Assembly (NCBI RefSeq): GCF_054482525.1
Contig: NZ_CM137006.1
DNA length: 64,000 nucleotides
Strand: one strand, 5' to 3'
Part shown: positions 334 to 43,292 of the stretch, one piece after another
Layout: the number at the start of each line of letters is the position of its first letter
How positions within the stretch are numbered: the stretch's first letter is position 1
Translations under genes and position numbers: made by a program
Notes under the pieces: model-generated
The model's input: the letters and a program-made list of their open reading frames with translations, nothing else
Told to the model about the DNA's origin: nothing
The model's database searches: none

Positions 334-1410
334 GTGAGTATGGCTAACGCCTGGCTCAGATTATGGCATGACATGCCAAATGACCCTAAGTGGCGAACAA
401 TTGCCAGGGTGTCAGGGCAGCCAATTGCAACAGTGATGGCAGTGTATATCCACCTCCTGGTGAGCGCGTCACGAAATGTCACGCGAGGTCACATTGATGT
501 CACGACAGAAGATTTGGCAAGTGCGCTCGACGTGACAGAAGAGGTAATTGATTCAATTTTGCAGACGATGCAGGGGCGGGTACTTGATGGTGATTTAATC
601 ACTGGATGGGAAAAACGCCAGGTGCTTAAAGAGGACAACGGCAATATTTCGCAAACCGCAAAATCTCCTGCAGAGCGCAAGAGGGCGCAGCGAGAGAGGG
701 AAAGAAAGCGGGAACAAAATGGCGATTGTCACGGCGCGTCACGAAATGTCACGCACATGTCACGACGAGTCACGACAGATAAAGATACAGATAAAGATAC
801 AGATCAAGAAGATCAAAACACTATGGTCCATGGCGTAAAAAACGCCACGAACCAGGCAGGGGATGTTCAGACCGTCAATCCTGGTCAGCCAGCAGGCACG
901 ACACCGGAAGCCGATTCAGCGTATGCGCTGAAAGCCGATTCGGGCGCTGTGCAGCAGGTGATGACCGCAAGGCCGGAGCAATCACACCAACTGCAGCAGC
1001 CTGAAGCCGATTCCGCCATTCAGCGGGAAGCCGATCGGGTAGTCCCGGAAAGCACCGGGCAGTCTGTGGGACGAGTGGATTATCCGGATGTGTTCGAACA
1101 GGTCTGGCGGGAGTACCCGTTGCGTGCTGGGGCAAACCCGAAGAAATCCGCTTTCAGTGCTTGGAAGGCCAGATTACGCGAGGGGGTGCCACCAGAGGCC
1201 ATGCTGGATGGCGTGAGGCGTTACGCAAGATACTTGGCGGCTACCGGGAAAACGGGAACGGAATTTGTTCAGCGAGCGACGACGTTTTTTGGACCGGATC
1301 GGAATTTTGAGAACCCCTGGTTGCTCCCGGTAAGCGGCACGAACAACCAGCGTTGTGTGAATCATATTTCTGAACCGGATAACGAAATTCCGCCGGGCTT
1401 CAGGGGGTAA
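334..1410 (+). CDS. Putative phage replication protein with DnaT-like C-terminal domain
   Basis: 358 aa; C-terminus ...SEPDNEIPPGFRG resembles the E. coli DnaT C-terminus as recalled; acidic DKDTDKDTDQEDQ linker; two clusters of GTCACG direct repeats inside the ORF. Confidence 0.5.
   Translation: MSMANAWLRLWHDMPNDPKWRTIARVSGQPIATVMAVYIHLLVSASRNVTRGHIDVTTEDLASALDVTEEVIDSILQTMQGRVLDGDLITGWEKRQVLKEDNGNISQTAKSPAERKRAQRERERKREQNGDCHGASRNVTHMSRRVTTDKDTDKDTDQEDQNTMVHGVKNATNQAGDVQTVNPGQPAGTTPEADSAYALKADSGAVQQVMTARPEQSHQLQQPEADSAIQREADRVVPESTGQSVGRVDYPDVFEQVWREYPLRAGANPKKSAFSAWKARLREGVPPEAMLDGVRRYARYLAATGKTGTEFVQRATTFFGPDRNFENPWLLPVSGTNNQRCVNHISEPDNEIPPGFRG
466..780. repeat. Two clusters of iteron-like direct repeats (GTCACG x4 each), candidate phage origin inside the replication gene
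   Basis: gcgcgtcacgaaatgtcacgc...gtcac..gtcacgacag occurs at about 466-510 and again at about 735-780. Confidence 0.5.
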
Positions 1411-1450
1411 GTGTTAATTTCTGGTCATGAGGTAATTTTCAGGAGGGCTT

Positions 1451-1876
1451 GTGGCAAAAGTTTTTACACAAGAAGAGCGGGAAAAAATTAAAGGGCAGGT
1501 TGTTGAACTTGTACGTCTGAGCGGTCGCGAGACGTTGCGGCAACTGGAAGCCAGGACAGGTGCGACAAGATATCTGATGAGTGTTCTCGCCAGAGAGCTG
1601 GTTGCCAGTGGCGATGTATACAACTCTGGTTACGGGTTATTCCCGTCTGAACAGGCGCGTAAGGACTGGCAAAATGCTCGCAAAAAACTCTCAAGGGCAA
1701 AGGTGAAGAAACCTGCAGTGGTTGATCCGGACCTTATCTGGTCGTTACCAGACGGCGAAATACGCCGCTACGACAGGCGCCTGAATATAATCTGTCGCGA
1801 GTGCCGGAAGAGCGAAGCTATGCAGCGTGTACTGGCATTTTATCAAGGAAATGTTAGGTATTTTAGACGTTACTAG
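1451..1876 (+). CDS. Hypothetical phage early protein
   Basis: 141-aa ORF directly downstream of the replication gene, same strand; no family recognised. Confidence 0.4.
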   Translation: MAKVFTQEEREKIKGQVVELVRLSGRETLRQLEARTGATRYLMSVLARELVASGDVYNSGYGLFPSEQARKDWQNARKKLSRAKVKKPAVVDPDLIWSLPDGEIRRYDRRLNIICRECRKSEAMQRVLAFYQGNVRYFRRY

Positions 1877-2029
1877 ATTAAAGAGCATTAGTTCAGATGT
1901 GAATTGACATTTTCATGGCGCAGGGTAGAGCCAGCGTGGTTGTCCGCTTTGCGTCAAAACCAGATATTACCAGATTTAGACATATATTCCCGATAGACCT
2001 GCTCTGATGCTACACTCTGTGCTATTTTC

Positions 2030-2716
2030 ATGACCCCAATAAAAATATTTATGACTATTGCTGATTTCAAACGGCCTAAATTGGAGCTCCCAAACGGGGC
2101 AAACAAACTACTACTGCACTCTTGCTGTGCTCCATGTTCCGGTGAAGTGATGGAGGCGCTTCAGGCCTCGGGAATCGACTACACCATCTTTTTCTACAAC
2201 CCGAACATTCATCCTCAGAAAGAGTATTTAATTCGTAAGGATGAAAATATTCGCTTTGCTGAACAACACGGCGTGCCGTTTATCGATGCTGATTACGACA
2301 CCGACAACTGGTTTGAACGTGCCAAAGGAATGGAATGGGAGCCTGAGAGGGGGATCCGTTGTACCATGTGTTTTGACATGCGTTTTGAGCGGACAGCGTT
2401 GTACGCTGCTGAAAATGGTTTCAGTGTGATCAGCAGTTCACTGGGCATTTCACGCTGGAAAAATATGCAGCAGGTTAACGAGTGTGGGCGGCGAGCTGTT
2501 GCGCATTATCCGGGTATGGTGTACTGGGATTATAACTGGCGCAAGCAGGGCGGCTCGTCCCGTATGATTGAAATCAGCAAGCGCGAAAAATTCTATCAGC
2601 AGGAATATTGTGGCTGTGTGTATTCTCTGCGCGATACCAATCTACACCGCAAATCTCAGGGACGCCCTCTTATCAAAATTGGCCAACTCCACTACGGAAA
2701 AGAAGAGAAGGAGTGA
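2030..2716 (+). CDS. queH: QueH-like (DUF208) epoxyqueuosine reductase
   Basis: 228 aa with [11 protein letters not shown] near the N-terminus, [20 protein letters not shown] and C-terminal QEYCGCVYS motifs, recalled as the QueH cysteine signature; own upstream TTGACA at 1904-1909. Confidence 0.6.
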
Positions 2717-2952
2717 TTTTATGGATCACCTTTCTGATTGATTTTATATTGGCGAGGTAACGGGAGTTAAGTAGAATGGCTGCGGGTGCTTGAGGCTATC
2801 TGTCTCAGGCATGAACACCAAAGGCAGATAGAGAAAAGCCCCAGTTAACATTACGCGTCCTGCAAGACGCTTAACATTAATCTGAGGCTCAATCTATGAA
2901 CGGCAAATCTAGGTTAGCCTCTTACGTGCCGAAAGGCAAGGAGAAGCAGGCT

Positions 2953-3108
2953 ATGAAGCAGCAAAAGGCGATGTTAATCGCCCTGATCGTCATCTGTTTA
3001 ACCGTCATTGTGACGGCACTGGTAACGAGGAAAGACCTCTGCGAGGTACGAATCCGAACCGGCCAGACGGAGGTCGCTGTCTTCACAGCTTACGAACCTG
3101 AGGAGTAA
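2953..3108 (+). CDS. hokD: Hok/Gef-family type I toxin; in-frame Mok-like N-terminal extension begins at 2896
   Basis: MKQQKAMLIALIVICLTVIVTALVTRKDLCEVRIRTGQTEVAVFTAYEPEE (51 aa) matches Hok/Gef/RelF as recalled; GCTTGAGGC leader motif at about 2788-2800. Confidence 0.7.
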   Translation: MKQQKAMLIALIVICLTVIVTALVTRKDLCEVRIRTGQTEVAVFTAYEPEE

Positions 3109-3251
3109 GAGACCTGGCGGGGGAGAAATCCCTCGCCACCTCTGATGTGTCAGGCATCCTCAACGCACCCGCACTTAACCCGCTTCGGCGTTTTTTCCGT
3201 TGATTAACTCTAGTTATTAGAGAACCGAACTTTTATTGATGGGGCAGGGAG

Positions 3252-3644
3252 ATGAAGAAACTTGTTTTAGTCGCAGGTGTAATGATTGCAACAGTAATGT
3301 TGGGAGGGTGTGCAGCAAAGATCGATCCAGCGTTGAAAGCAGAAGCAATGAAGCCACTAACATGTAATGATGAAAAGCAATGTGACTTTTATTGGAAACG
3401 AGCGCAATTCTGGTTGGCTAATAATTCCTCATGGAAAATTCAAACGGCGACAGACACGCTAATTTCCACTTATAATCCCTCTCCAAATAGTCCATTCCTC
3501 GCTTATCAAGTGAGTAAAATGCCAAATGAAGATGGATCCTCAAGAATTTTCATCAAGCCTTTTTGCGATAATATGTTTGGCTGTCAACCAAACCCCTATC
3601 AGGCAGTTGTTTCCTTTAAAAACTTCGTTAAAACAGGGCAGTAG
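3252..3644 (+). CDS. Predicted lipoprotein of unknown function
   Basis: 130 aa; signal peptide with lipobox (VMLGGCAA); four further Cys; RBS ggga 7 nt upstream. Confidence 0.55.
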   Translation: MKKLVLVAGVMIATVMLGGCAAKIDPALKAEAMKPLTCNDEKQCDFYWKRAQFWLANNSSWKIQTATDTLISTYNPSPNSPFLAYQVSKMPNEDGSSRIFIKPFCDNMFGCQPNPYQAVVSFKNFVKTGQ

Positions 3645-3843
3645 TGTATAGCTTGGACGATAAATTATTAGTGAAAACGCCGTAAACCCTCACCCAATGT
3701 GGACTAAGTCTATCAAACATGACTGTGATGATTAGTCCGTAGTTGTTGTCTATGAAATCTGGATTGAGTCAGGGTTTAATCCAATAATTATTCTATCGTT
3801 CCTTTACAAGTCCGGTATATTACTTTCAGTTTGTTTTAGCATA

Positions 3844-6328: not shown

Positions 6329-6393
6329 AAGGCATATATTTCATGCAAATCTGATATTTTGCCGATTTTGTACGTGATGGCAAAAGCAAACAA

Positions 6394-6418
6394 AACCCGC
6401 CCACAAGCGGGTTTTTTG
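6394..6418 (+). terminator. Rho-independent terminator downstream of Q-like gene (tR'-like)
   Basis: aacccgcccacaagcgggtt hairpin followed by tttttt. Confidence 0.55.
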
Positions 6419-6522: not shown

Positions 6523-6598
6523 GGCCCTTTAGCTCAGTGGTGAGAGCGAGCGACTCATAATCGCCAGGTCGCTGGTTCAAATCCAGCAAGGGCCACCA
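6523..6598 (+). tRNA. tRNA with CAT anticodon (Ile2/Met-type)
   Basis: 76 nt cloverleaf ending CCA; anticodon loop CTCATAA; close to E. coli ileX as recalled. Confidence 0.7.
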
Positions 6599-6599
6599 G

Positions 6600-6676
6600 C
6601 CGCCACTAGCTCATCAGGAAAGAGCGTCAACCCTTTAAGTTGAGTGTGCGAGGTTCGAGTCCCCGGTGGCGGTCCA
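6600..6676 (+). tRNA. Atypical tRNA-like gene (anticodon loop CCTTTAA, UUU with C33); possibly non-canonical or pseudo-tRNA
   Basis: 77 nt; acceptor CCGCCAC/GTGGCGG plus T-CCA; D-arm GCTC/GAGC; T-loop TTCGAGT; one A-C mismatch in T-stem. Confidence 0.4.
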
Positions 6677-6678
6677 GT

Positions 6679-6754
<76 letters not shown>

Positions 6755-6757
6755 TAT

Positions 6758-6832
<75 letters not shown>

Positions 6833-7037
6833 GTTAGAGTCTTTCAGTCTGCGATGATGGGAAATCCCGGAGTGACTGAAAGACGTTTAAGTTATGAATG
6901 ATCGCTTTTTTTGCAAAATTGCTGTGCAGAAATACTAACCTTCGGGCAGGCGATCATTCATAAGCACTCTGCTTTTATTCCGATTAACTGTGGGTGGTTT
7001 GTTGGATAGAGTGCTTCCCTTACTGTATATATCGTTT

Positions 7038-7063
7038 CGCCCGCTTTTGCGGGTTTTTCTTTT
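7038..7063 (+). terminator. Rho-independent terminator between tRNA cluster and holin
   Basis: gcccgcttttgcggg hairpin followed by a T-run. Confidence 0.5.
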
Positions 7064-7123
7064 CAAATCCCTTTCATTTCTCAGTGTAAAACTACGCCAT
7101 CCGTTATTTGCGGAGGTGAGGCT

Positions 7124-7339
7124 ATGAAATCCATGGACAAAATTTCAACGGGCATTGCCTACGGCACCTCCGCAGGCAGTGCTGGCTACTGGTTTTTACA
7201 GTGGCTTGATCAGGTCAGTCCGTCACAGTGGGCTGCGATTGGTGTACTGGGGAGTCTGGTTCTGGGCTTCCTGACTTATCTGACAAATCTGTACTTCAAA
7301 ATCAGAGAAGACAAGCGTAAGGCTGCACGGGGAGAGTAA
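7124..7339 (+). CDS. S: Class II holin (phage 21 S-like pinholin)
   Basis: 71 aa; [26 protein letters not shown]... with dual-start MKSM; matches S21 as recalled. Confidence 0.8.
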
Positions 7340-7343
7340 TTCA

Positions 7344-7694
7344 ATGACTCAAAACTATGAACTGATTGTGAAAGGGATCCGCAATTTTGAGAATAAAGTT
7401 ACGGTAACTTTAGCGTTACGGGACAAAAAACGCTTTGACGGCGAAATTTTTGACCTGGACATCTCGCTGGACCGTGTTGAAGGTGCCGCGCTGGAGTTTT
7501 ATGAGGCAGCAGCCAGAAGGAGCATCAGACAGGTCTTCCTGGATGTTGCTGCCGGGTTATGTGAAGGGGATGAGCAGTCGCCGGAAAAGCGCCCCGTAAT
7601 TTTAGAGGCGCAGAATGTGTGGATAACCTACAAAGGAAAGCTACCAGGAAGAATTACTGGTTCTCTGAAGACTCCTCCGGAATCACAACCTTAA
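7344..7694 (+). CDS. Hypothetical protein between holin and endolysin (YdfR/DUF1327-like by position)
   Basis: 116-aa ORF 4 nt after the holin stop; Qin prophage has ydfR in the same position. Confidence 0.4.
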   Translation: MTQNYELIVKGIRNFENKVTVTLALRDKKRFDGEIFDLDISLDRVEGAALEFYEAAARRSIRQVFLDVAAGLCEGDEQSPEKRPVILEAQNVWITYKGKLPGRITGSLKTPPESQP

Positions 7695-24697: not shown

Positions 24698-27600
24698 ATG
24701 GGTAAAGGCAGCAGTAAGGGGCATACCCCGCGCGAAGCGAAGGACAACCTGAAGTCCACGCAGTTGCTGAGTGTGATCGATGCCATCAGCGAAGGGCCGA
24801 TTGACGGTCCGGTGGATGGATTAAAAAGCGTGCTGCTGAACAGTACGCCAGTGCTGGACACTGAGGGGAATACCAACATCTCCGGCGTCACGGTGGTGTT
24901 CCGGGCAGGTGAGCAGGAGCAGACTCCGCCGGAGGGGTTTGAATCCTCCGGCTCCGAGACGGTGCTCGGTACAGAAGTGAAATATGACACGCCGATCACC
25001 CGGACCATCACGTCGGCAAACATTGACCGTCTGCGTTTTACTTTCGGCGTGCAGACACTGGTGGAAACCACCTCAAAGGGGGACAGGAATCCGTCGGAAG
25101 TCCGCCTGCTGGTTCAGATACAGCGTAACGGTGGCTGGGTGACGGAAAAAGACATCACCATTAAGGGCAAAACCACCTCGCAGTATCTGGCCTCGGTGGT
25201 GGTGGGTAACCTGCCGCCGCGCCCGTTTAATATCCGGATGCGCAGGATGACGCCGGACAGCACCACAGACCAGCTGCAGAACAAAACGCTCTGGTCGTCA
25301 TACACCGAAATCATCGATGTGAAACAGTGCTACCCGAACACGGCACTGGTCGGCGTGCAGGTGGACTCGGAACAGTTCGGCAGTCAGCAGGTGAGCCGTA
25401 ATTATCATCTTCGCGGGCGCATTCTGCAGGTGCCGTCGAACTATAACCCGCAGACGCGGCAATACAGCGGTATCTGGGACGGAACGTTTAAGCCAGCATA
25501 CAGCAACAACATGGCCTGGTGTCTGTGGGATATGCTGACCCATCCGCGCTACGGCATGGGGAAGCGTCTCGGTGCGGCGGATGTGGACAAATGGGCGCTG
25601 TATGTCATCGGCCAGAATTGCGACCAGTCGGTGCCGGATGGCTTTGGTGGCACGGAGCCGCGCATCACCTGTAATGCCTGGCTGACCACACAGCGTAAGG
25701 CGTGGGATGTTCTCAGTGATTTCTGCTCGGCGATGCGCTGTATGCCGGTATGGAACGGGCAGACGCTGACGTTCGTGCAGGACCGACCATCAGATAAGGT
25801 GTGGACCTATAACCGCAGTAATGTGGTGATGCCGGATGATGGCGCGCCGTTCCGCTACAGCTTCAGCGCCCTGAAGGACCGCCATAATGCCGTTGAGGTG
25901 AACTGGATTGACCCGAACAACGGCTGGGAGACGGCGACAGAGCTTGTTGAAGATACGCAGGCCATTGCCCGTTACGGTCGTAACGTCACGAAGATGGATG
26001 CCTTTGGCTGTACCAGCCGGGGGCAGGCACACCGCGCCGGGCTGTGGCTGATTAAAACGGAACTGCTGGAAACGCAGACCGTGGACTTCAGCGTGGGCGC
26101 AGAAGGGCTTCGCCATGTACCGGGCGATGTCATTGAAATCTGTGATGATGACTATGCCGGTATCAGCACCGGTGGTCGTGTGCTGGCGGTGAACAGCCAG
26201 ACCCGGACGCTGACGCTCGACCGTGAAATCACGCTGCCATCCTCCGGTACCACGCTGATAAGCCTGGTTGACGGAAGTGGCAATCCGGTCAGCGTGGAGG
26301 TTCAGTCCGTCACCGACGGCGTGAAGGTAAAAGTGAGCCGTGTTCCTGACGGTGTTGCTGAATACAGCGTATGGGGGCTGAAGCTGCCGACGCTGCGCCA
26401 GCGCCTGTTCCGCTGTGTGAGTATCCGGGAGAACGATGACGGTACGTATGCCATCACCGCCGTGCAGCATGTACCGGAAAAAGAAGCCATCGTGGATAAC
26501 GGGGCGCACTTTGACGGCGACCAGAGCGGCACGGTGAATGGTGTCACGCCGCCAGCGGTGCAGCACCTGACCGCCGAAGTCACCGCAGACAGCGGGGAAT
26601 ATCAGGTGCTGGCGCGATGGGACACGCCGAAGGTGGTGAAGGGCGTGAGCTTCCTGCTTCGCCTTACCGTGGCAGCGGACGACGGCAGTGAGCGGCTGGT
26701 CAGCATGGCCCGGACGACGGAAACCACATACCGCTTCAGGCAACTGGCGCTGGGGCGTTACACGCTGACGGTCCGGGCGGTAAATGCGTGGGGGCAGCAG
26801 GGCGATCCGGCATCGGTATCGTTCCGGATTGCGGCACCGGCAGCGCCTGTCACTATTGAACTGATACCAGGGTATTTTCAGATAACAGCGGTCCCGAAAC
26901 TGGCTGTATATGACCCGACGGTGCAGTTTGAGTTCTGGTTCTCGGAAACGCGGATTACCGATATCAGGCAGGTTGAAACCACAGCCCGCTACCTTGGCAC
27001 GGGGCTGTACTGGATAGCCGCCAGTATCAATATCAAACCGGGCCATGATTATTACTTTTATATCCGCAGTGTGAACACCGTTGGCAAATCGGCATTCGTG
27101 GAGTCCGTCGGTCGGGCGAGCGATGATGCGGAAGGTTACCTGGATTTTTTCAAAGGCAAGATAACCGAATCCCATCTCGGCAAGGAGCTGCTGGAAAAAG
27201 TCGATCTGACGGAGGATAACGCCAGCAGACTGGATGAGTTTTCGAAAGAGTGGAAGGATGCCAACGATAAATGGAATGCCATGTGGGCTGTCAAAATTGA
27301 GCAGACCAAAGACGGCAAACATTATGTCGCGGGTATTGGCCTCAGTATGGAGGACACGGAGGAAGGCAAACTGAGCCAGTTTCTGGTTGCCGCTAACCGT
27401 ATCGCGTTTATTGACCCGGCAAACGGGAATGAAACGCCGATGTTTGTGGCGCAGGGCAATCAGATATTCATGAACGACGTGTTCCTGAAACGCCTGACGG
27501 CCCCCACCATTACCAGTGGTGGAAATCCACCGGCATTTTCCCTGACACCGGATGGGCGGCTGACGGCGAAAAATGCCGATATCAGCGGTAACGTGAATGC

Positions 27601-28818: not shown

Positions 28819-31224
28819 GTGGATATGGCAGCAGTAAAAATCTCAGGTGTGCTGAAAGATGGTGCGGGAAAACCAATACAGAACTGCACTATTCAACTGA
28901 AGGCAAAGCGTAACAGCACCACGGTACTGGTGAACACGGTGGCCTCTGAAAATCCGGATGAAGCCGGGCGTTACAGCATGGATGTTGAGTATGGCCAGTA
29001 CAGCGTCATCCTGCTGGTTGAAGGTTTTCCGCCTTCACATGCCGGGACCATTACCGTCTATGAAGGCTCCAGACCAGGTACGCTGAATGATTTTCTCGGT
29101 GCCATGACGGAAGATGATGTCATGCCGGAGGCATTGCGTCGTTTTGAGGAAATGGTGGAAGAAGCGGCACGCAACGCTGAAGCCGCCTCTCAGAGCGCAG
29201 CGGCGGCAAAGAAATCAGAAACTGCAGCGGCATCATCGAAGAACGCGGCGAAAACCTCAGAAACGAATGCAGCTAACAGCGCACAGGCGGCAGCGGCCTC
29301 ACAGACTGCATCAGCAAACTCCGCGACAGCAGCCAAAAAATCAGAAACCAACGCGAAAAATAGCGAGACAGCCGCAAAGACGAGCGAAACCAACGCAAAG
29401 TCCAGCCAGACGGCAGCGAAAACCAGCGAAACGAATGCCAAAGCCAGTGAAACTGCGGCAAAAAACAGCCAGGTTGCAGCAGCCCAAAGCGAGAGCGCGG
29501 CAGCCGGTTCTGCGACTTCAGCAGCTGGATCAGCAACTGCTGCGGCTAACAGCCAGAAAGCTGCGAAGACGAGTGAAACTAACGCAAAGTCCAGCCAGAC
29601 GGCAGCGAAGACCAGCGAAACGAATGCCAAAGCCAGCGAAACTGCGGCGAAAAACAGTCAGGATGCAGCAGCCCAAAGCGAGAGTGCTGCAGCTGGTTCT
29701 GCAAGCGCGGCGGCTGCTTCTGCCACTGCATCAGCCAACAGTCAAAAAGCAGCAAAAACCAGTGAAACCAATGCAAAGACAAGCGAGACTGCAGCGGCGA
29801 ACTCGGCGAAAGCATCGGCAGCAAGCCAGACAGCAGCTAAAGCAAGTGAAGACGCAGCCAGAGAGTATGCAAGTCAGGCAGCAGAGCCGTATAAATATGT
29901 CTTACAGCCACTGCCTGATGTGTGGATACCGTTTAACGATTCACTGGATATGATTACGGGCTTTTCGCCGTCATATAAAAAAATTGTTATTGGTGATGAT
30001 GAAATAACGATGCCTGGCGACAAGGTTGTTAAGTTTAAACGCGCATCAACTGCCACATATATCAATAAATCAGGCGTATTTAGTGTTGCTAAAATTGATG
30101 AGCCACGATTTGAAAAAGAAGGTTTATTGATTGAAGGACAGCGCACTAACTATTTTGTTAAATCCAATACTCCCGCTGAATGGACGAGTACCAGCAATAT
30201 CGATAAAACTAATAATGGTGTTGATGAATTTGGTTTTTCATATGCCAAAATGCGAACAAAAGATAATATGACAGGACAATCATCTGCACTTAGTCTGCAT
30301 ACATGCAGTGCATCCCGGGGGATTGATGTTAGTGGCGATAATAAGTATTGCACTGTTTCATGCAGGGTTAAAGCTCCTGATGGTCTTCGTTGTCGTTTGC
30401 GTTTTGAAAAATACGATGGGTCGGTTTATACATTTTTAGGAGATGCTTATTTAACTTTCGGAACTCTGATAATAGAAAAAACTGGCGGAGCAGCCAATAG
30501 AATAGCAGCTACTGCAACTAAAGATCCGGTTACAGGGTGGATTTTCTATGAGGCAACTATAGAAGCTGTTGAAGGTGAAACCTTAATTGGCGCAATGATT
30601 CAGTATGCGCCGAAAAAAGGTGGTATAACTGAAGCGGGAGATTATATTTACCTTGCAACACCACAATTTGAAAACGGCGGATGTGCTTCATCTTTTGTTA
30701 TTACGACAACTGCACCCGCAACCCGCTCCAGTGATATGGTGACGATCCCAACTGAAAATAATATCTATAATAGACCGCTTACGTGTCTTGTCGAGGTTAA
30801 TAGAAATTGGGGCGATATTCCTCCTAATGTAGCACCGCGTATTTTTGATTTTTCTGGTGTGCCACCTATTGAGTCAATTACATACGCTTTTAACACAACT
30901 GAGAAATATTACGGTCAGCTTTATATGCAGACTTATAAAGCGTCGACAAGTACTTACGTTTCTAGTGTGTTTGCTGGTCGAACTGATGTTCGAAAATTCA
31001 TTGGTGGTTTTAATATTTATTCTGATGGTACTAAACGAGTAGTTTCTAACGGTGAGGCTACTAAAACTATGAAAACGGAGTGGACGGGCGTAAAAACACG
31101 GACCTTTATTCGAATTGGAGGTCAAGCCACATCGGGAACTCGTCATCTATTCGGCCATTTGAGAAATCTTCGTCTCTGGCATAAAGAATTAACTGATGCG
31201 CAAATGGGGGAGAGTATTAAATGA
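28819..31224 (+). CDS. stf: Side tail fibre protein (Stf-like) with Ala/Ser/Thr repeat stalk
   Basis: 801 aa; N-terminus like lambda Stf as recalled; central KTSETNAKxSxTAA repeats. Confidence 0.8.
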   Translation: MDMAAVKISGVLKDGAGKPIQNCTIQLKAKRNSTTVLVNTVASENPDEAGRYSMDVEYGQYSVILLVEGFPPSHAGTITVYEGSRPGTLNDFLGAMTEDDVMPEALRRFEEMVEEAARNAEAASQSAAAAKKSETAAASSKNAAKTSETNAANSAQAAAASQTASANSATAAKKSETNAKNSETAAKTSETNAKSSQTAAKTSETNAKASETAAKNSQVAAAQSESAAAGSATSAAGSATAAANSQKAAKTSETNAKSSQTAAKTSETNAKASETAAKNSQDAAAQSESAAAGSASAAAASATASANSQKAAKTSETNAKTSETAAANSAKASAASQTAAKASEDAAREYASQAAEPYKYVLQPLPDVWIPFNDSLDMITGFSPSYKKIVIGDDEITMPGDKVVKFKRASTATYINKSGVFSVAKIDEPRFEKEGLLIEGQRTNYFVKSNTPAEWTSTSNIDKTNNGVDEFGFSYAKMRTKDNMTGQSSALSLHTCSASRGIDVSGDNKYCTVSCRVKAPDGLRCRLRFEKYDGSVYTFLGDAYLTFGTLIIEKTGGAANRIAATATKDPVTGWIFYEATIEAVEGETLIGAMIQYAPKKGGITEAGDYIYLATPQFENGGCASSFVITTTAPATRSSDMVTIPTENNIYNRPLTCLVEVNRNWGDIPPNVAPRIFDFSGVPPIESITYAFNTTEKYYGQLYMQTYKASTSTYVSSVFAGRTDVRKFIGGFNIYSDGTKRVVSNGEATKTMKTEWTGVKTRTFIRIGGQATSGTRHLFGHLRNLRLWHKELTDAQMGESIK
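29180..29860 (+). repeat. In-frame tandem repeats within stf, including a direct duplication of about 120-190 bp
   Basis: gcaaagtccagccagacggcagcgaa... occurs at about 29395 and again at about 29581; many shorter related units. Confidence 0.7.
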
Positions 31225-33290: not shown

Positions 33291-33960
33291 ACTTTATCAA
33301 TGACTTATCTCCCGACTTCCCGCCTTGCTTTTCCTAAACAGAACAATCGTAGAATATTCTTGAAGGGTTAGATCGTCACTGTTTTCTGTTCGATACTGTG
33401 ACATTCAGCACTTGATTCGCTATGGATCTGACAGGAAGGTCTCGAGCGAAAATCTGCAGTTATTCAGTCGTTTTCTTATCGGTCACCATTATTCTTTTAG
33501 ACATTGATCCTACGAAGCTGCCGCAAAGTTGGTGGTGGGAACTGAATTTGCGTAGAGAAGGGGTCAATAATTGAGCCAAAAAAGGAACGCGGCCGTCAGA
33601 TTAAAGCCGCGGGACAAAGTCCATAATTTCCAAGAGTTGTTGAATTTCCCAGCTTTTTTGAAAGCCTTTGTATCATACTAACAAGTAAAAAAGGTTTAAA
33701 TACCAAAATTAACCTATATTTCTGGTTAGCTTTACCATGACAGATGACTTGCTCCTGGAGACATTGGCGCAGCCAGTCTGTATTGGTGAGTTGTGTATTT
33801 ATTGTTCGCCGTTTTCTCAGTTTTTTTCTACAGACATAATAAAAAAGACACGTCTCAAGCATGAGCGTGTCTGAGTTTGTCTTATTTATTTGTCTTGGTA
33901 AATTATTGTCGTTACTACCAGGCACTGTTCTGTTAAATAATTGAAGTCAGCGCAAAAAAA

Positions 33961-34611
33961 TCAATGAGACATCATTTCCTCGACCACTTCTTCGCTACTC
34001 AACTGATATGGATAATACGTTGGCCAGTTTTCCATTTCATTTAATAAAGATTGCTGTGAATCATTACCCATAAAAATGTGAAAATGAGATGATTTTCGTG
34101 GTGCAATTATATGATCGCTAAATTGTATATATTTAGGGGCTTTGCTTTTAGGATCTTTACATTCGAATAAGTAACGAACGCCTTTCTTGCCTGATTTATA
34201 GGTGAGTATTTTGTATCCATCGTAATCATATTTACAGGATGTTGTTTCATTATTTCTATGGAATTCAACAATGCCGTCCTCAATGCCAATCATCTCGATA
34301 TCTGTCACATAACCTTTGCGATAATAATCTTTAATTTCAGCAAATGTTTTAGTTTTATCTGCATCCGCTTTCTTCTGAAAGACGGGGTCAAGTTTGCCAC
34401 TTTGCAGTAAAGGATAAACGGATTGCCAGACTCCATCCCAGTCACTGAGCGTTCGGTTTTGTACATTGGCATCATCAAAAACACCATTAGCAGCTTTTTG
34501 TTCGACCTCTGTTAAGGGTTTGCCGTGTGAGTGATGACCATGCGAAAAGGCAGGAGCGCTAACAATAAAGACACCTAAAGCAACAGCCAGTTTATGAAGA
34601 CGAATCGCCAA
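33961..34611 (-). CDS. zinT: Metal-binding protein ZinT
   Basis: 216 aa; signal peptide and His-rich HGHHSHG motif; synteny with msrQP. Confidence 0.85.
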
Positions 34612-34819: not shown

Positions 34820-35574
<755 letters not shown>

Positions 35575-35678
35575 ATCAGCATACTTGTCCTTAGCCTTCT
35601 GCAGTGACAGCTGGTAGTACAGCGTGCTTCTGGCCAGCCCTGCAGCCTTTAACAGGTCAGACTGGCAGTGTCCGCACC

Positions 35679-36209
35679 TCAGGCTCCGGATGACTTTCGT
35701 TTTTTCTCCAGCTCCTGGCGCTTTTTTTCCAGGAGATGCTCCTGCATGGCTTTCAGATATGCATTTTCTGCGCGAAGATAACGCAGCTCATTCTTCATCT
35801 CTTCCGGCGTCATGTTTGCCTCGTTTTCATGGGTATCATCAGAACGGGTCATGCTTTTCTCCTTCCTGCGCCTGATAAAGGCCTCATTACCAGATTTGCG
35901 GTAGCCTTTTATCCAGTTTTTAACCGTGTTGTGGCTGGGAATGTTAAACCGGGCAGCTACCCGGGGTAGAGACTCAGAATGCCCGAGAGCATAAAGAACC
36001 ACGCAAAGTTTATCTTCAGGAGAATAGCTACGCTTGTGTCTGCAATCCAGTGCCCGAGGACCGTGAAGAAGAAAAAGATTAATCCAGTGTGAGAGGCTGG
36101 TGTGAGAAAGTTGAAAGAGTTTTGCCGTAGAAATGATGCCTGCATGACCAGCCAGGTAATGATTTACAGCGGCAAGTTTTACTTCAAATGAATGTTTCAT
36201 AAACTGCAC
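35679..36209 (-). CDS. IS3-family transposase OrfA (HTH)
   Basis: 176 aa with HTH N-terminus and leucine-zipper-like C-terminus. Confidence 0.8.
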   Translation of the reverse strand: MQFMKHSFEVKLAAVNHYLAGHAGIISTAKLFQLSHTSLSHWINLFLLHGPRALDCRHKRSYSPEDKLCVVLYALGHSESLPRVAARFNIPSHNTVKNWIKGYRKSGNEAFIRRRKEKSMTRSDDTHENEANMTPEEMKNELRYLRAENAYLKAMQEHLLEKKRQELEKKRKSSGA

Positions 36210-42176: not shown

Positions 42177-43292
42177 TTAGAACTGGTAGACGATACCAAC
42201 TGCAAACTGGTCATCAGCTGCTGCGCCAGTAATGGCGGCGTCATCTTTATCCAGCATGTTGAATTTGTATGCAGTATAAACGTTCATGTTCTTATTGAAG
42301 TAGTACCAGGTACCAACTTCAATGTAGTTCACACGGTCAGCGTCAACATATCTATGTCCAGGTACACCTTTGATATCTTTACCTTTAGAATACACATAAC
42401 CTAAGGACGGACGCAGACCAAAGTCGAATTGATACTGAACAACCGCTTCAAAGTTCTGGGTTTCATTGATAAGTTGATCACGCATTATTGTATTGCCTTC
42501 TCGATCGGCAACACCTGTATCAATAGAACTCGGAGTCATATTACGAGTTTCACCGTACATTACAGCTGCGTAGACATTGTTCGCGTCATACTTTGCAGCC
42601 AATGACCACAGTTCAGCATTTGAACCGTTTCCATCGGCAACTTGATCGTTGGTGCGATCAGATTTGCTATATGCACCAACGATACCAAAACCATTGATGT
42701 TATAGTCTACAGACAACGCATAGCCGTCACCATTTTGTTTCTTAGTGCTACGGTTGCTGTTTTTGCCTTGGTACTGAATCGCAAAATCAAGACCATCAAC
42801 CAGACCAAAGAAATCAGAGTTACGGTAGGTTGCAACACCGTTGGTACGACCGTTCATGAAGTTGTCAGCGGACGCCCAGGAATCACCACCCCATTCAACT
42901 AACATATCGGTATAAGCTGCGGCATCATAAGCAACACCGTAGTTACGACCATAGTCGAAAGATCCTAACTCGTTATATTTCAAACCTGCGAAGGTTAAAC
43001 GGGTTTTTTCCTGATTAGAGCCTTCGGGCTTGCTGGCGTCGAGGTTGTATTCAAACTGACCAAAACCAGTCAGTTCGCTGGTGATTTGGGTTTCACCTTT
43101 AACACCGAAACGAGCATAGGAGGTATCTTCGTTTTCGCTGTTATTATCATCAGTATTTGACCAGATGCGTTCGCCAACCATCTTGCCGTAGAAATCAACT
43201 TTATTGCCATCTTTATTATAAATTTCAGCCGCATTTGCTGCGCCAGCAACTAATAACGCCGGGACCAGCATTGCCAGAACTTTTCTTTTCAT
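42177..43292 (-). CDS. yedS: OmpC-family general porin (yedS locus), apparently intact
   Basis: Signal peptide [21 protein letters not shown]; porin motifs; C-terminal ...VYQF; lies between hchA and yedR. Confidence 0.8.

Follow-up and report, generated by a model that had tools for sequence, protein, structure and literature searches.

A queH gene in lambdoid prophages of Escherichia coli and its candidate role in cobalamin-independent completion of queuosine

The biosynthesis of queuosine (Q) is taught from E. coli K-12, in which the last step proceeds via QueG and hence depends on imported B12; E. coli is unable to synthesize cobalamin de novo. QueH is an Fe-S, cobalamin-independent epoxyqueuosine (oQ) reductase that completes Q at position 34 of tRNA-Asn, -Asp, -His, and -Tyr. 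What a gene resembling queH is doing inside a lambda-like (lambdoid) prophage of E. coli is the question raised by the locus described here. The oQ-to-Q step of E. coli has been reported to need cobalamin (PMC4646009, which cites Frey et al. 1988), with QueH as a cobamide-independent alternative (PMC6461909). The DNA analyzed was a stretch of 64,000 nt (the window) from contig NZ_CM137006.1 of assembly GCF_054482525.1, and all positions follow window numbering. The gene order is Ren-like/DUF977 gene, queH, hok/sok, DUF968, RusA, and phage gene Q, and the features around queH are as follows.

1451 to 1876, plus strand: Ren-like/DUF977 gene, which closes the replication module (match to PHROG 142, Ren-like exclusion protein, at E = 5e-46; DUF977 in PGAP).
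1877 to 2050, plus strand: intergenic stretch that separates the DUF977 gene from queH, without a riboswitch or stable structure.
1904 to 1909, plus strand: TTGACA box noted earlier, unsupported as a promoter.
2008 to 2016, plus strand: candidate extended -10 element TGCTACACT, with a transcript start predicted in silico at about 2022 to 2025.
2030 to 2050, plus strand: in-frame upstream extension of the 228-aa open reading frame (ORF), probably 5' untranslated region and not coding.
2051 to 2716, plus strand: queH coding sequence (CDS), 221 aa plus stop, predicted cobalamin-independent epoxyqueuosine reductase (PGAP WP_000150294.1).
2717 to 2783, plus strand: short spacer 3' of queH, the right end of the cassette, which travels with queH.
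2784 to 3108, plus strand: hok/sok type I toxin-antitoxin locus (hokD CDS at 2953 to 3108), an occupant of the variable cargo slot and outside queH.

The original prediction, made from the sequence alone, had read a 228-aa ORF at 2030 to 2716 of the plus strand as a QueH-like protein on the basis of its cysteine motifs. The ORF is present and both motifs, including QEYCGCVYS, occur in its translation, but the start has to be moved. ATG 2030 is not conserved, being ATT in the diverged prophage allele L010, whereas ATG 2051 is invariant in the prophage allele comparison and is the start used by PGAP; the true start is therefore almost certainly ATG 2051. The resulting length of 221 aa equals that of homologues. 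No Shine-Dalgarno sequence precedes ATG 2051. The upstream gap, which had been put at about 150 bp, begins after the DUF977 stop at 1876 and measures 153 nt if taken to 2030 and 174 nt if taken to 2051.

Membership of the QueH family was examined by profile, alignment, and predicted structure. The Pfam QueH profile (PF02677, DUF208) matched the ORF at E = 1.2e-65 over model positions 1 to 174 of 175, a full-length match that sets it apart from a chance ORF, and Thermotoga maritima QueH in the PDB (7lc5) matched the protein at E = 8e-22 using phmmer. In a 43-sequence alignment reaching down to 35% identity, residues C25, C26, C29, C104, C107, C187, C189, E99, R103, R111, and K137 (221-aa numbering) were invariant, and the same residues of prophage QueH are all at consensus among 58 family representatives; thus, all seven family-conserved cysteines have been kept. 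Going by PDB entry titles, we take these residues to serve the Fe-S cluster and an adjacent iron site. QueH is the sole Pfam domain in the protein, with no cobalamin-binding module. A scan against NCBIfam returned no family at E <= 0.001; this says nothing against membership, because identical proteins are named QueH by PGAP, presumably on other evidence.

The AF2 model of prophage QueH (pLDDT 95.4, pTM 0.90) superimposes on 7lc5 with a TM score of 0.92 and a root mean square deviation of 1.2 Å. The top five Foldseek matches were all T. maritima QueH entries (TM by target, 0.90 to 0.92), and those that followed, TtuA and others, reached a TM of 0.56 at most. The T. maritima enzyme (7lc5, 7lc7, and 9deu) shares with prophage QueH the CCxxC...CxxC...CxC cysteine set, the full-length profile match, and the same predicted single-domain fold without a cobalamin-binding module. 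However, identity between the two is only 30%, and T. maritima QueH carries Asp13 where prophage QueH and 56 of the 58 family representatives carry Cys, which makes the T. maritima protein the outlier at this position. Prophage QueH differs further in being prophage encoded and in a basic C-terminal tail of approximately 20 residues, common to other Enterobacterales. With profile match, conserved cysteines, and predicted fold in agreement, the product of 2051 to 2716 is, as judged by conserved residues and modeled structure, a genuine and catalytically intact QueH.

To identify how widespread the gene is, complete E. coli genomes and phage collections were searched. A queH CDS was found in 994 of 5,426 complete E. 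coli genomes, 984 of the copies being full length, whereas queG was full length in 5,425 of the same genomes, in line with the expectation that E. coli uses QueG. QueG (YjeS) catalyzes the same conversion of oQ-tRNA to Q-tRNA in the same genomes, but this Fe-S enzyme is from an unrelated family, needs cobalamin (PMC4646009), and is encoded by a core chromosomal gene, while queH is accessory. In addition, 163 IMG/VR contigs carry queH. From a tblastn search of 50,697 phage records, the plaque-forming HannyBb was the only cultured phage found to encode QueH. The other matches were set aside, as they lay in unannotated fragments (faecal metagenome, Listeria, and Staphylococcus phage records) or in oversized "phage" records of 283 to 379 kb, which were not trusted as phage genomes.

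In every locus examined queH occupies the same slot, whether the lambdoid prophage is Qin-like, Rac-like, or of another type, and a survey of related prophages found that its presence or absence varies among them. The DUF977 gene lies upstream in 86 of 90 loci and a match to the 1877 to 2050 stretch in 88 of 90; the spacer at 2717 to 2783 accompanies queH in 80 of 81 loci, independently of what follows further downstream. The slot beyond it holds hok/sok in 57 of 81 loci, Dcm plus an NgoMIV-family restriction-modification (R-M) system in 20, and Kiwa-like genes in one. In the window the occupant is the hok locus anticipated from the sequence: the Rfam sok family (RF01794) matches 2784 to 2958 at 110 bits (gathering score, 59), and hokD is annotated by PGAP in near-identical loci. 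In strain BAP1, queH has been lost by a clean 1,361-bp deletion with flanks that are 100% identical. This arrangement was rejected as an ancestral empty DUF977–hok site, as the deletion also takes the end of DUF977 and BAP1 was the sole joined match. Strain NCTC10537, which is queH positive, as are APEC O18 and an ST131 isolate, forms a near-natural pair with the BAP1/BL21 lineage. The gene also stands alone, as had been proposed, with no tgt, dpdA, queC, queD, queE, or folE in the prophage or host DNA of the window; this was read from the annotation of a collinear genome (92.8 to 98% identical over aligning stretches), from integrase to tail fibers plus flanking host DNA.

Among prophage queH alleles, dN/dS was 0.05 to 0.06 at a dS of 0.27 to 0.45, and from these sequence comparisons the gene appears strongly conserved under purifying selection. 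It is intact in an Escherichia albertii island and in prophages whose integrase is frameshifted, fragmentary, or a pseudogene. The original reading of queH as moron-like accessory cargo is supported by this conservation, by its variable presence, by its fixed slot next to the variable addiction/defense slot, by a promoter-like element (see below), and by its persistence in integrase-defective prophages. Morons, or lysogenic-conversion genes, of lambdoid prophages include lom and bor of lambda. Like them, queH is accessory, variably present between functional modules, kept in defective prophages, and equipped with a candidate promoter of its own. It differs in that no terminator was found, in a G+C content (48%) not distinct from that of the prophage (51%), and in its product, which is a tRNA-modification enzyme and not a surface or virulence protein. 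No composition anomaly of queH was detected against the prophage in either G+C (0.48 versus 0.51) or GC3 (0.53 versus 0.54).

Prophage QueH is 80 to 90% identical to QueH of Enterobacter, Klebsiella, Citrobacter, Erwinia, Photorhabdus, and Providencia, reaching about 90% amino acid identity with the chromosomal proteins of the first three genera. Chromosomal queH genes of Enterobacter, Klebsiella, Citrobacter koseri, and other Enterobacterales share with the prophage gene its length, this 80 to 90% amino acid identity, and a TGCTAnAnT motif 31 to 35 nt upstream, but they lie in ordinary gene surroundings, e.g., near a LysR regulator and acetyltransferases or, in Providencia, next to tmcA and purC. 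Apart from the motif, DNA homology to the chromosomal loci is confined to window positions 2047 to 2707. Synonymous sites of the chromosomal genes are saturated relative to the prophage copy; therefore, either the capture was not recent or the donor is unsampled. A housekeeping-type Enterobacteriaceae queH would thus have been picked up by a lambdoid phage as a compact cassette, composed of a short leader with its own candidate extended -10 promoter, the CDS, and a trailer of about 67 nt. The slot of this cassette is fixed, after the replication module (Ren-like/DUF977) and before the variable addiction/defense slot ahead of DUF968-RusA-Q.

How the gene might be transcribed was examined in the upstream region. 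The TTGACA box that had been noted there is present at 1904 to 1909, but a role for it as the queH promoter was rejected for want of a -10 partner and of conservation: no acceptable -10 lies at 16 to 18 nt (the hexamer at a spacer of 16 to 17 nt is TAGAGC or AGAGCC), the box was not called by a consensus promoter scan, and it is missing from alleles L010 and L011. It is probably not the queH promoter. The extended -10-like TGCTACACT at 2008 to 2016 is a better candidate. It falls within the block TCTGATGC-ACAC (2003 to 2015), which is identical in six of the seven prophage alleles compared; the hexamer has C for T at its first base in allele L099 (CACACT) and ends in A in L010 (TACACA). The TGCTAnAnT motif is found 31 to 35 nt upstream of ATG in the prophage, in the E. 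albertii island, and in two chromosomal queH loci that otherwise cannot be aligned in their flanks. The prophage hexamer, TACACT, is weaker than the TACAAT and TAAAAT of chromosomal copies, and the consensus scan called no promoter at 2008 to 2016. An RNA element ahead of queH, such as a riboswitch, was also considered and discarded, with no Rfam match in 1877 to 2050 at E <= 1 and a fold of this region no better than that of shuffled sequences (z-score, -0.49).

The explanation that we consider likely is that queH, captured from a housekeeping locus and equipped with a promoter of its own, gives the lysogen a cobalamin-independent conversion of oQ to Q, to the benefit of the host. Because QueG needs cobalamin and E. 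coli makes none de novo, a lysogen with an active QueH could finish Q without B12: oQ-tRNA would be turned into Q-tRNA whatever the B12 supply or the uptake by BtuB. Such lysogenic conversion of tRNA modification status would benefit the host. Transcription in the lysogen, activity of the enzyme in E. coli, a B12-sparing benefit, and an effect on the oQ/Q status of tRNA are what we infer from the conserved gene and its setting. The tRNA genes of the prophage, for Met/Ile(CAU), Lys, Thr, and Gly, include none with a GUN anticodon; it is counted in favor of this explanation that queH would not be there for phage tRNAs or phage DNA. Against it, the gut usually offers B12 and other corrinoids.

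The stretch from 1400 to 3700 contained no terminator-like site, which leaves queH joined both to the early operon before it and to hok after it, so queH would also be transcribed within the early-right operon of the phage. This leads to a second explanation, in which queH is chiefly a phage early gene that is expressed from the early-right promoter once the phage is induced or infects a cell and supplies more Q-tRNA for phage translation, with any effect in the lysogen incidental. Its co-orientation with the replication genes and phage gene Q, without an intervening terminator-like site, would fit such a role, as would its retention in the plaque-forming HannyBb and a 2026 preprint on phage-infected Shewanella, where queG was up-regulated and oQ shifted to Q. 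However, codon usage gave no sign of a phage need for Q, as NAU and NAC are used alike (NAU fraction of 0.59 in prophage genes versus 0.62 in neighboring host genes). In addition, queH has stayed intact in integrase-defective prophages and in the E. albertii island, where selection through the lytic cycle is expected to be weak or absent, and its promoter-like element is of the chromosomal queH type and not the phage type. We consider this explanation unlikely.

BtuB, the B12 transporter, is also a receptor for E colicins and some phages. A further reading, which we put forward as quite unlikely, is that prophage QueH is an "epitranscriptomic" lysogenic-conversion factor that belongs functionally with the adjacent defense/addiction cargo, either uncoupling Q from cobalamin uptake, so that lysogens could lose or down-regulate BtuB and still keep Q-tRNA, or setting the oQ/Q state of GUN tRNAs and thereby altering how vulnerable they are to tRNA-targeting toxins. 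More doubtful still is a role for QueH in a tRNA-centered conflict, in which Q on GUN tRNAs would protect from, or sensitize to, anticodon nucleases, colicins, or phage defense, and in which the gene would belong with the defense slot. Directly downstream, the slot is indeed occupied by hok/sok, by a type II R-M system, or by Kiwa-like genes, and the prophage tRNA genes include tRNA-Lys(UUU), which is a common target of anticodon nucleases. Bacterial immunity is also recognized to target tRNAs (PMC12409363). To our knowledge, however, no nuclease distinguishes oQ from Q, and a protein about 90% identical to housekeeping QueH bears no sign of a new function. Because queH remains constant while the neighboring cargo changes, it has no fixed partnership with defense genes.

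It is highly improbable that queH is a functionless passenger kept by linkage to addiction modules (hok/sok and R-M): such modules adjoin it in 77 of 81 loci and it is, on paper, redundant with queG, but a dN/dS of about 0.05 among alleles whose dS reaches 0.45, the full length of 984 of 994 copies, and the retention of every conserved catalytic or metal-binding residue all stand against neglect. Least probable of all, and scarcely tenable, is a part in a phage 7-deazaguanine DNA-modification system. Phage clusters of this kind (DpdA with FolE, QueD, QueE, and QueC, as in phage 9g) likewise bring queuosine-pathway genes into phages, which use them to modify their own DNA (PMC6884629), but they rely on a transglycosylase that acts on DNA and on genes for preQ0 synthesis. 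Neither DpdA/Tgt nor folE, queD, queE, or queC is annotated in the collinear genome across the prophage and the window, so that such a role for queH is not supported, in agreement with the original prediction. QueH, moreover, acts on oQ in tRNA, a step later than the DNA-modification intermediates, and in the 2019 survey QueA, QueG, and QueH were all absent from such phages.

The original prediction was aware of no description of queH in lambdoid prophages, and this stands only in part. No paper on prophage queH, and no study of queH as phage cargo, was present in the literature searched, where an earlier mention in key QueH papers is possible; the databases, on the other hand, already name the gene, as in about a thousand E. 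coli genomes the protein bears the RefSeq/PGAP name "epoxyqueuosine reductase QueH." PHROGs lists the prophage QueH family as "unknown function," and the record of HannyBb labels the product hypothetical. An annotation gap thus exists between bacterial pipelines, which say QueH, and the phage family database, which says "unknown function." The 2019 survey reported no QueH in viruses (PMC6884629).

If the enzyme is active, Q could be completed in the absence of B12 by approximately 18% of sequenced E. coli, a group to which O157:H7, ST131, and avian pathogenic strains belong. Q affects the decoding of NAU and NAC codons. It has been tied to biofilm, virulence, and metal or oxidative stress phenotypes (PMC10570037, PMC9508795); therefore, differences between strains in these traits under B12 limitation could trace to a prophage. 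If true, this would be a case of a temperate phage altering the tRNA modification status of its host.

The original prediction of a 228-aa ORF at 2030-2716 (+) carrying three cysteine motifs was borne out by the window sequence, as were the gap in front of it, 153 nt from the end of a 141-aa gene, and a hok toxin locus downstream. The window begins within a lambdoid prophage that ends at ~33.7 kb, past which comes E. coli chromosomal DNA (the yodB-zinT-msrQP...fli region). Past hok/sok, a small lipoprotein-like ORF leads into DUF968, RusA and the Q antiterminator, with four tRNA genes next.

Features around queH (window coordinates)
1451-1876, + strand, DUF977/Ren-like gene, 141 aa (PHROG 142)
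2051-2716, + strand, queH, 221 aa, predicted epoxyqueuosine (oQ) reductase
2784-2958 (sok; Rfam sok, 110 bits) and 2953-3108 (hokD CDS), hok/sok type I toxin-antitoxin locus

The proposed profile search against DUF208/QueH returned an end-to-end Pfam match to PF02677 (QueH; E=1.2e-65), and the only solved relatives were T. maritima QueH entries (E=8e-22). In an alignment of 43 sequences, down to 35% identity, all seven cysteines (C25, C26, C29, C104, C107, C187, and C189; 221-aa numbering) were invariant, as were E99, R103, R111, and K137. Residue 29 (window 2135-2137) is Cys in 56 of 58 full-length representatives, including the prophage protein, and corresponds to Asp13 in T. maritima QueH, the residue mutated in PDB 9dco; thus, it is T. 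maritima that departs from the family consensus and the prophage QueH that keeps to it, so the structurally characterized enzyme is atypical at what is probably a metal or catalytic position. An AlphaFold model built from the 43-sequence alignment (mean pLDDT, 95.4) superimposed on 7lc5 with a target-normalized TM score of 0.92 and an rmsd of 1.2 Å, the next structural neighbors, adenine-nucleotide alpha-hydrolase-type enzymes such as TtuA, scoring far lower. Judged on sequence and model, the product is a QueH by every membership criterion applicable in silico, its activity being predicted.

Start and leader conservation were judged from an alignment of seven prophage alleles. The frame of the 228-aa ORF exists, but its ATG at 2030 is not conserved, being ATT in the most diverged allele, while ATG 2051 and the codons following it are invariant and match the PGAP start (221 aa, WP_000150294.1); ATG 2051 is therefore taken as the start. 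Similarly, the predicted TTGACA box is present at 1904-1909 but has no usable -10 hexamer at 16 to 18 nt, was not called by a consensus scan and is missing from two allele groups, and it is probably not the promoter. The region immediately 5' of the start is better conserved. A block, TCTGATGCTACAC (2003-2015), was found without change in the first six prophage loci searched and differs by one change in the allele at locus L099 (TGCCACACT). Within it, TGCTACACT matches the extended -10 pattern TGnTAnnnT, which also occurs 31 to 35 nt 5' of the start codon in an E. albertii island and at two chromosomal queH loci.

Extended -10-like motifs upstream of queH
E. coli prophage cassette, window 2008-2016, TGCTACACT
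E. albertii island, TGCTAGAAT
Chromosomal queH locus L002, TGCTAAAAT
Chromosomal queH locus L008, TGCTACAAT

As the motif is kept across prophage, E. albertii and chromosomal lineages whose surrounding DNA is otherwise unalignable, it may represent a native queH promoter that travelled with the gene. The prophage copy has a weaker -10 hexamer, with variants in two alleles (TACACA and CACACT); the E. albertii extended -10 is stronger than that of the E. coli prophage copy. No Rfam family matched the queH leader, its predicted fold was no better than that of shuffled sequence, and no Shine-Dalgarno sequence was found before queH or in the chromosomal homologues inspected.

Among complete E. coli genomes, the queH CDS was found in 994 of 5,426 (18%), with at least 80% of it covered in 984 of the 994 carriers, and all matches listed were annotated as QueH. 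A search with an 884-bp segment gave 1,822 genomes, a larger number because it took in flank-only matches. Full-length queG, encoding the chromosomal cobalamin-dependent oQ reductase, was present in 5,425 of the 5,426. In IMG/VR, 163 viral contigs encode queH, the best 80 of the 163 all being 100% identical at the protein level, and among trusted genomes one cultured phage, Escherichia phage HannyBb, carries it. The HannyBb gene (PP925841, 33011-33697) is labelled hypothetical and the PHROGs family of the prophage protein (phrog_3217, E=1.7e-138) is of "unknown function," while PGAP names the same protein QueH; phage resources thus leave an annotation gap.

The survey of related prophages that had been suggested placed queH in the same slot in every annotated context opened: behind the DUF977 gene that closes the replication module and ahead of a DUF968/RusA/Q block or its equivalent. 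In three Qin-type loci the DUF977 gene and queH are separated by a short methyltransferase pseudogene fragment, and in an ST70 locus by a small reverse-oriented ORF.

Prophage contexts of queH
serU/mtfA-site prophage (window and relatives)
O157:H7 prophage
ST131 prophage
Rac-like prophage with kilR and ydaTUV
Qin-like prophages adjoining rspAB

Downstream cargo was tallied in the 81 loci with inspectable DNA past queH (L009, L099, and L010 included).

Cargo 3' of queH
hok/sok, 57/81 loci
Dcm-type methyltransferase and NgoMIV-family restriction enzyme, 20/81 loci (e.g., O157:H7 strain Z1767)
Kiwa-like (KwaB-like) genes, 1/81 loci (strain 7/2)
Other content, 3/81 loci

Because cargo beyond queH differs among these loci, queH is a constant accessory gene next to a variable addiction/defense slot. 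The site just 3' of queH (window 2717-3700) is a cargo hot spot. Within 1.5 kb downstream, a 130-aa ORF (3252-3644, +) with a lipoprotein-type signal (…LGGC…; phrog_16082, "unknown function") was seen in only 8 of the 81 loci.

Elsewhere in the window, the four tRNA genes directly after Q (6523-6832) are CAU, Lys(UUU), Thr(UGU), and Gly(UCC), none of them a queuosine tRNA. The first is called Met by ARAGORN and Ile by PGAP in related loci and is thus probably a lysidine tRNA-Ile. Other subsets occur in related prophages (Ile+Thr, Thr+Gly, and Ile+Arg). Between Q and the tRNA cluster, 6344-6417 (+) matched the Hfq-binding sRNAs isrJ and isrK weakly in Rfam, below threshold (23 to 25 bits, E 0.1 to 0.3). 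The closest complete genome, the collinear CM2, aligned at 92.8 to 98% identity (megablast level) except at 27195-27432 and 30114-31141 (tail tip/tail fiber region), 33738-33961 (prophage/host boundary), and 42191-43183 (near ompC). An IS3-family-like insertion at 34852-36209 (-), between zinT and msrQ, has a 176-aa ORF and a 240-aa ORF with transposase-like sequence and is absent from CM2.

The prophage protein is most closely related to QueH from other Enterobacterales. At 90% identity it clusters with sequences of Enterobacter and some from Klebsiella; Citrobacter koseri, the Klebsiella oxytoca group and E. albertii fall in a sister cluster, and Erwinia, Photorhabdus, Providencia, Proteus, and others share 80 to 86% identity. 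The non-E. coli contexts fetched were ordinary chromosomal ones, two adjoining a LysR regulator and acetyltransferases, and that of Providencia lying between tmcA and a transporter operon. Nucleotide homology between prophage and chromosomal loci was confined to 2047-2707 (76 to 82% identity), with a dN of 0.06 and saturated synonymous sites, which argues that the prophage queH is a captured cellular gene and that the capture was not recent or the donor is unsampled. In E. albertii an intact queH (220 aa; 7001-7663 in loci L094 to L096) was seen in many assemblies. The icd-adjoining island that holds it also has genes for an omptin and a T3SS NleG effector, and a fragment of a phage lysis gene.

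Among three prophage allele groups, dS was 0.27 to 0.45 and dN 0.015 to 0.023 (dN/dS, ~0.05); therefore, queH is not a decaying passenger. It is intact in several carriers with a frameshifted or fragmentary integrase. Lytic growth is unlikely both there and in the E. albertii island, so retention of the gene suggests selection at the level of the bacterial host. A role in the lytic cycle is less likely: queH belongs to the early-right operon, no terminator precedes it, and a preprint on Shewanella describes infection raising queuosine (Q) via queG, but a codon-usage signature was not found and retention in defective elements favors a host-level benefit. Participation in a tRNA-centered conflict, which the addiction/defense neighborhood and phage tRNA genes might suggest, is considerably less credible still. 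A DNA-modification role can be dismissed, as the original prediction held, since the annotation of the collinear genome shows no transglycosylase or preQ0 genes and the enzyme acts specifically on oQ in tRNA.

A benefit to the host would follow from the pathway itself. oQ is made by QueA on tRNA-Asn, -Asp, -His, and -Tyr and then reduced to Q by QueG or QueH. E. coli is not known to make cobalamin de novo. The passage of PMC4646009 citing Frey et al. 1988 gives E. coli oQ reduction as cobalamin-dependent, and QueH is the cobamide-independent alternative (PMC6461909). A lysogen transcribing queH from the conserved candidate promoter could then complete Q regardless of B12 supply or BtuB-mediated uptake. 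The gene can also be lost: relative to NCTC10537 (L098, 4613-5973), strain BAP1 (L101) has a clean 1,361-bp deletion covering the last part of the DUF977 gene, a methyltransferase fragment, queH and ~290 nt beyond. The flanking 3.1 and 3.5 kb are 100% identical, and the two strains offer a possible natural queH-plus/queH-minus pair.

QueG and QueH are reported together in many streptococci (PMC12632869), so their co-occurrence is not unprecedented, and presumably it holds in the Enterobacter/Klebsiella group too. Public databases already contain the QueH family, its reaction and even a name for this very protein, which qualifies the original remark of not being aware of such a gene being described for lambdoid prophages; no paper on queH as prophage cargo was found, passing mention elsewhere being possible, and the main survey of viral Q-pathway genes found no QueA, QueG, or QueH homologues (PMC6884629). 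The enzyme itself is ordinary, and what is unusual is its carriage by a temperate phage: prophage queH encodes a known protein in an unusual, biologically suggestive location.
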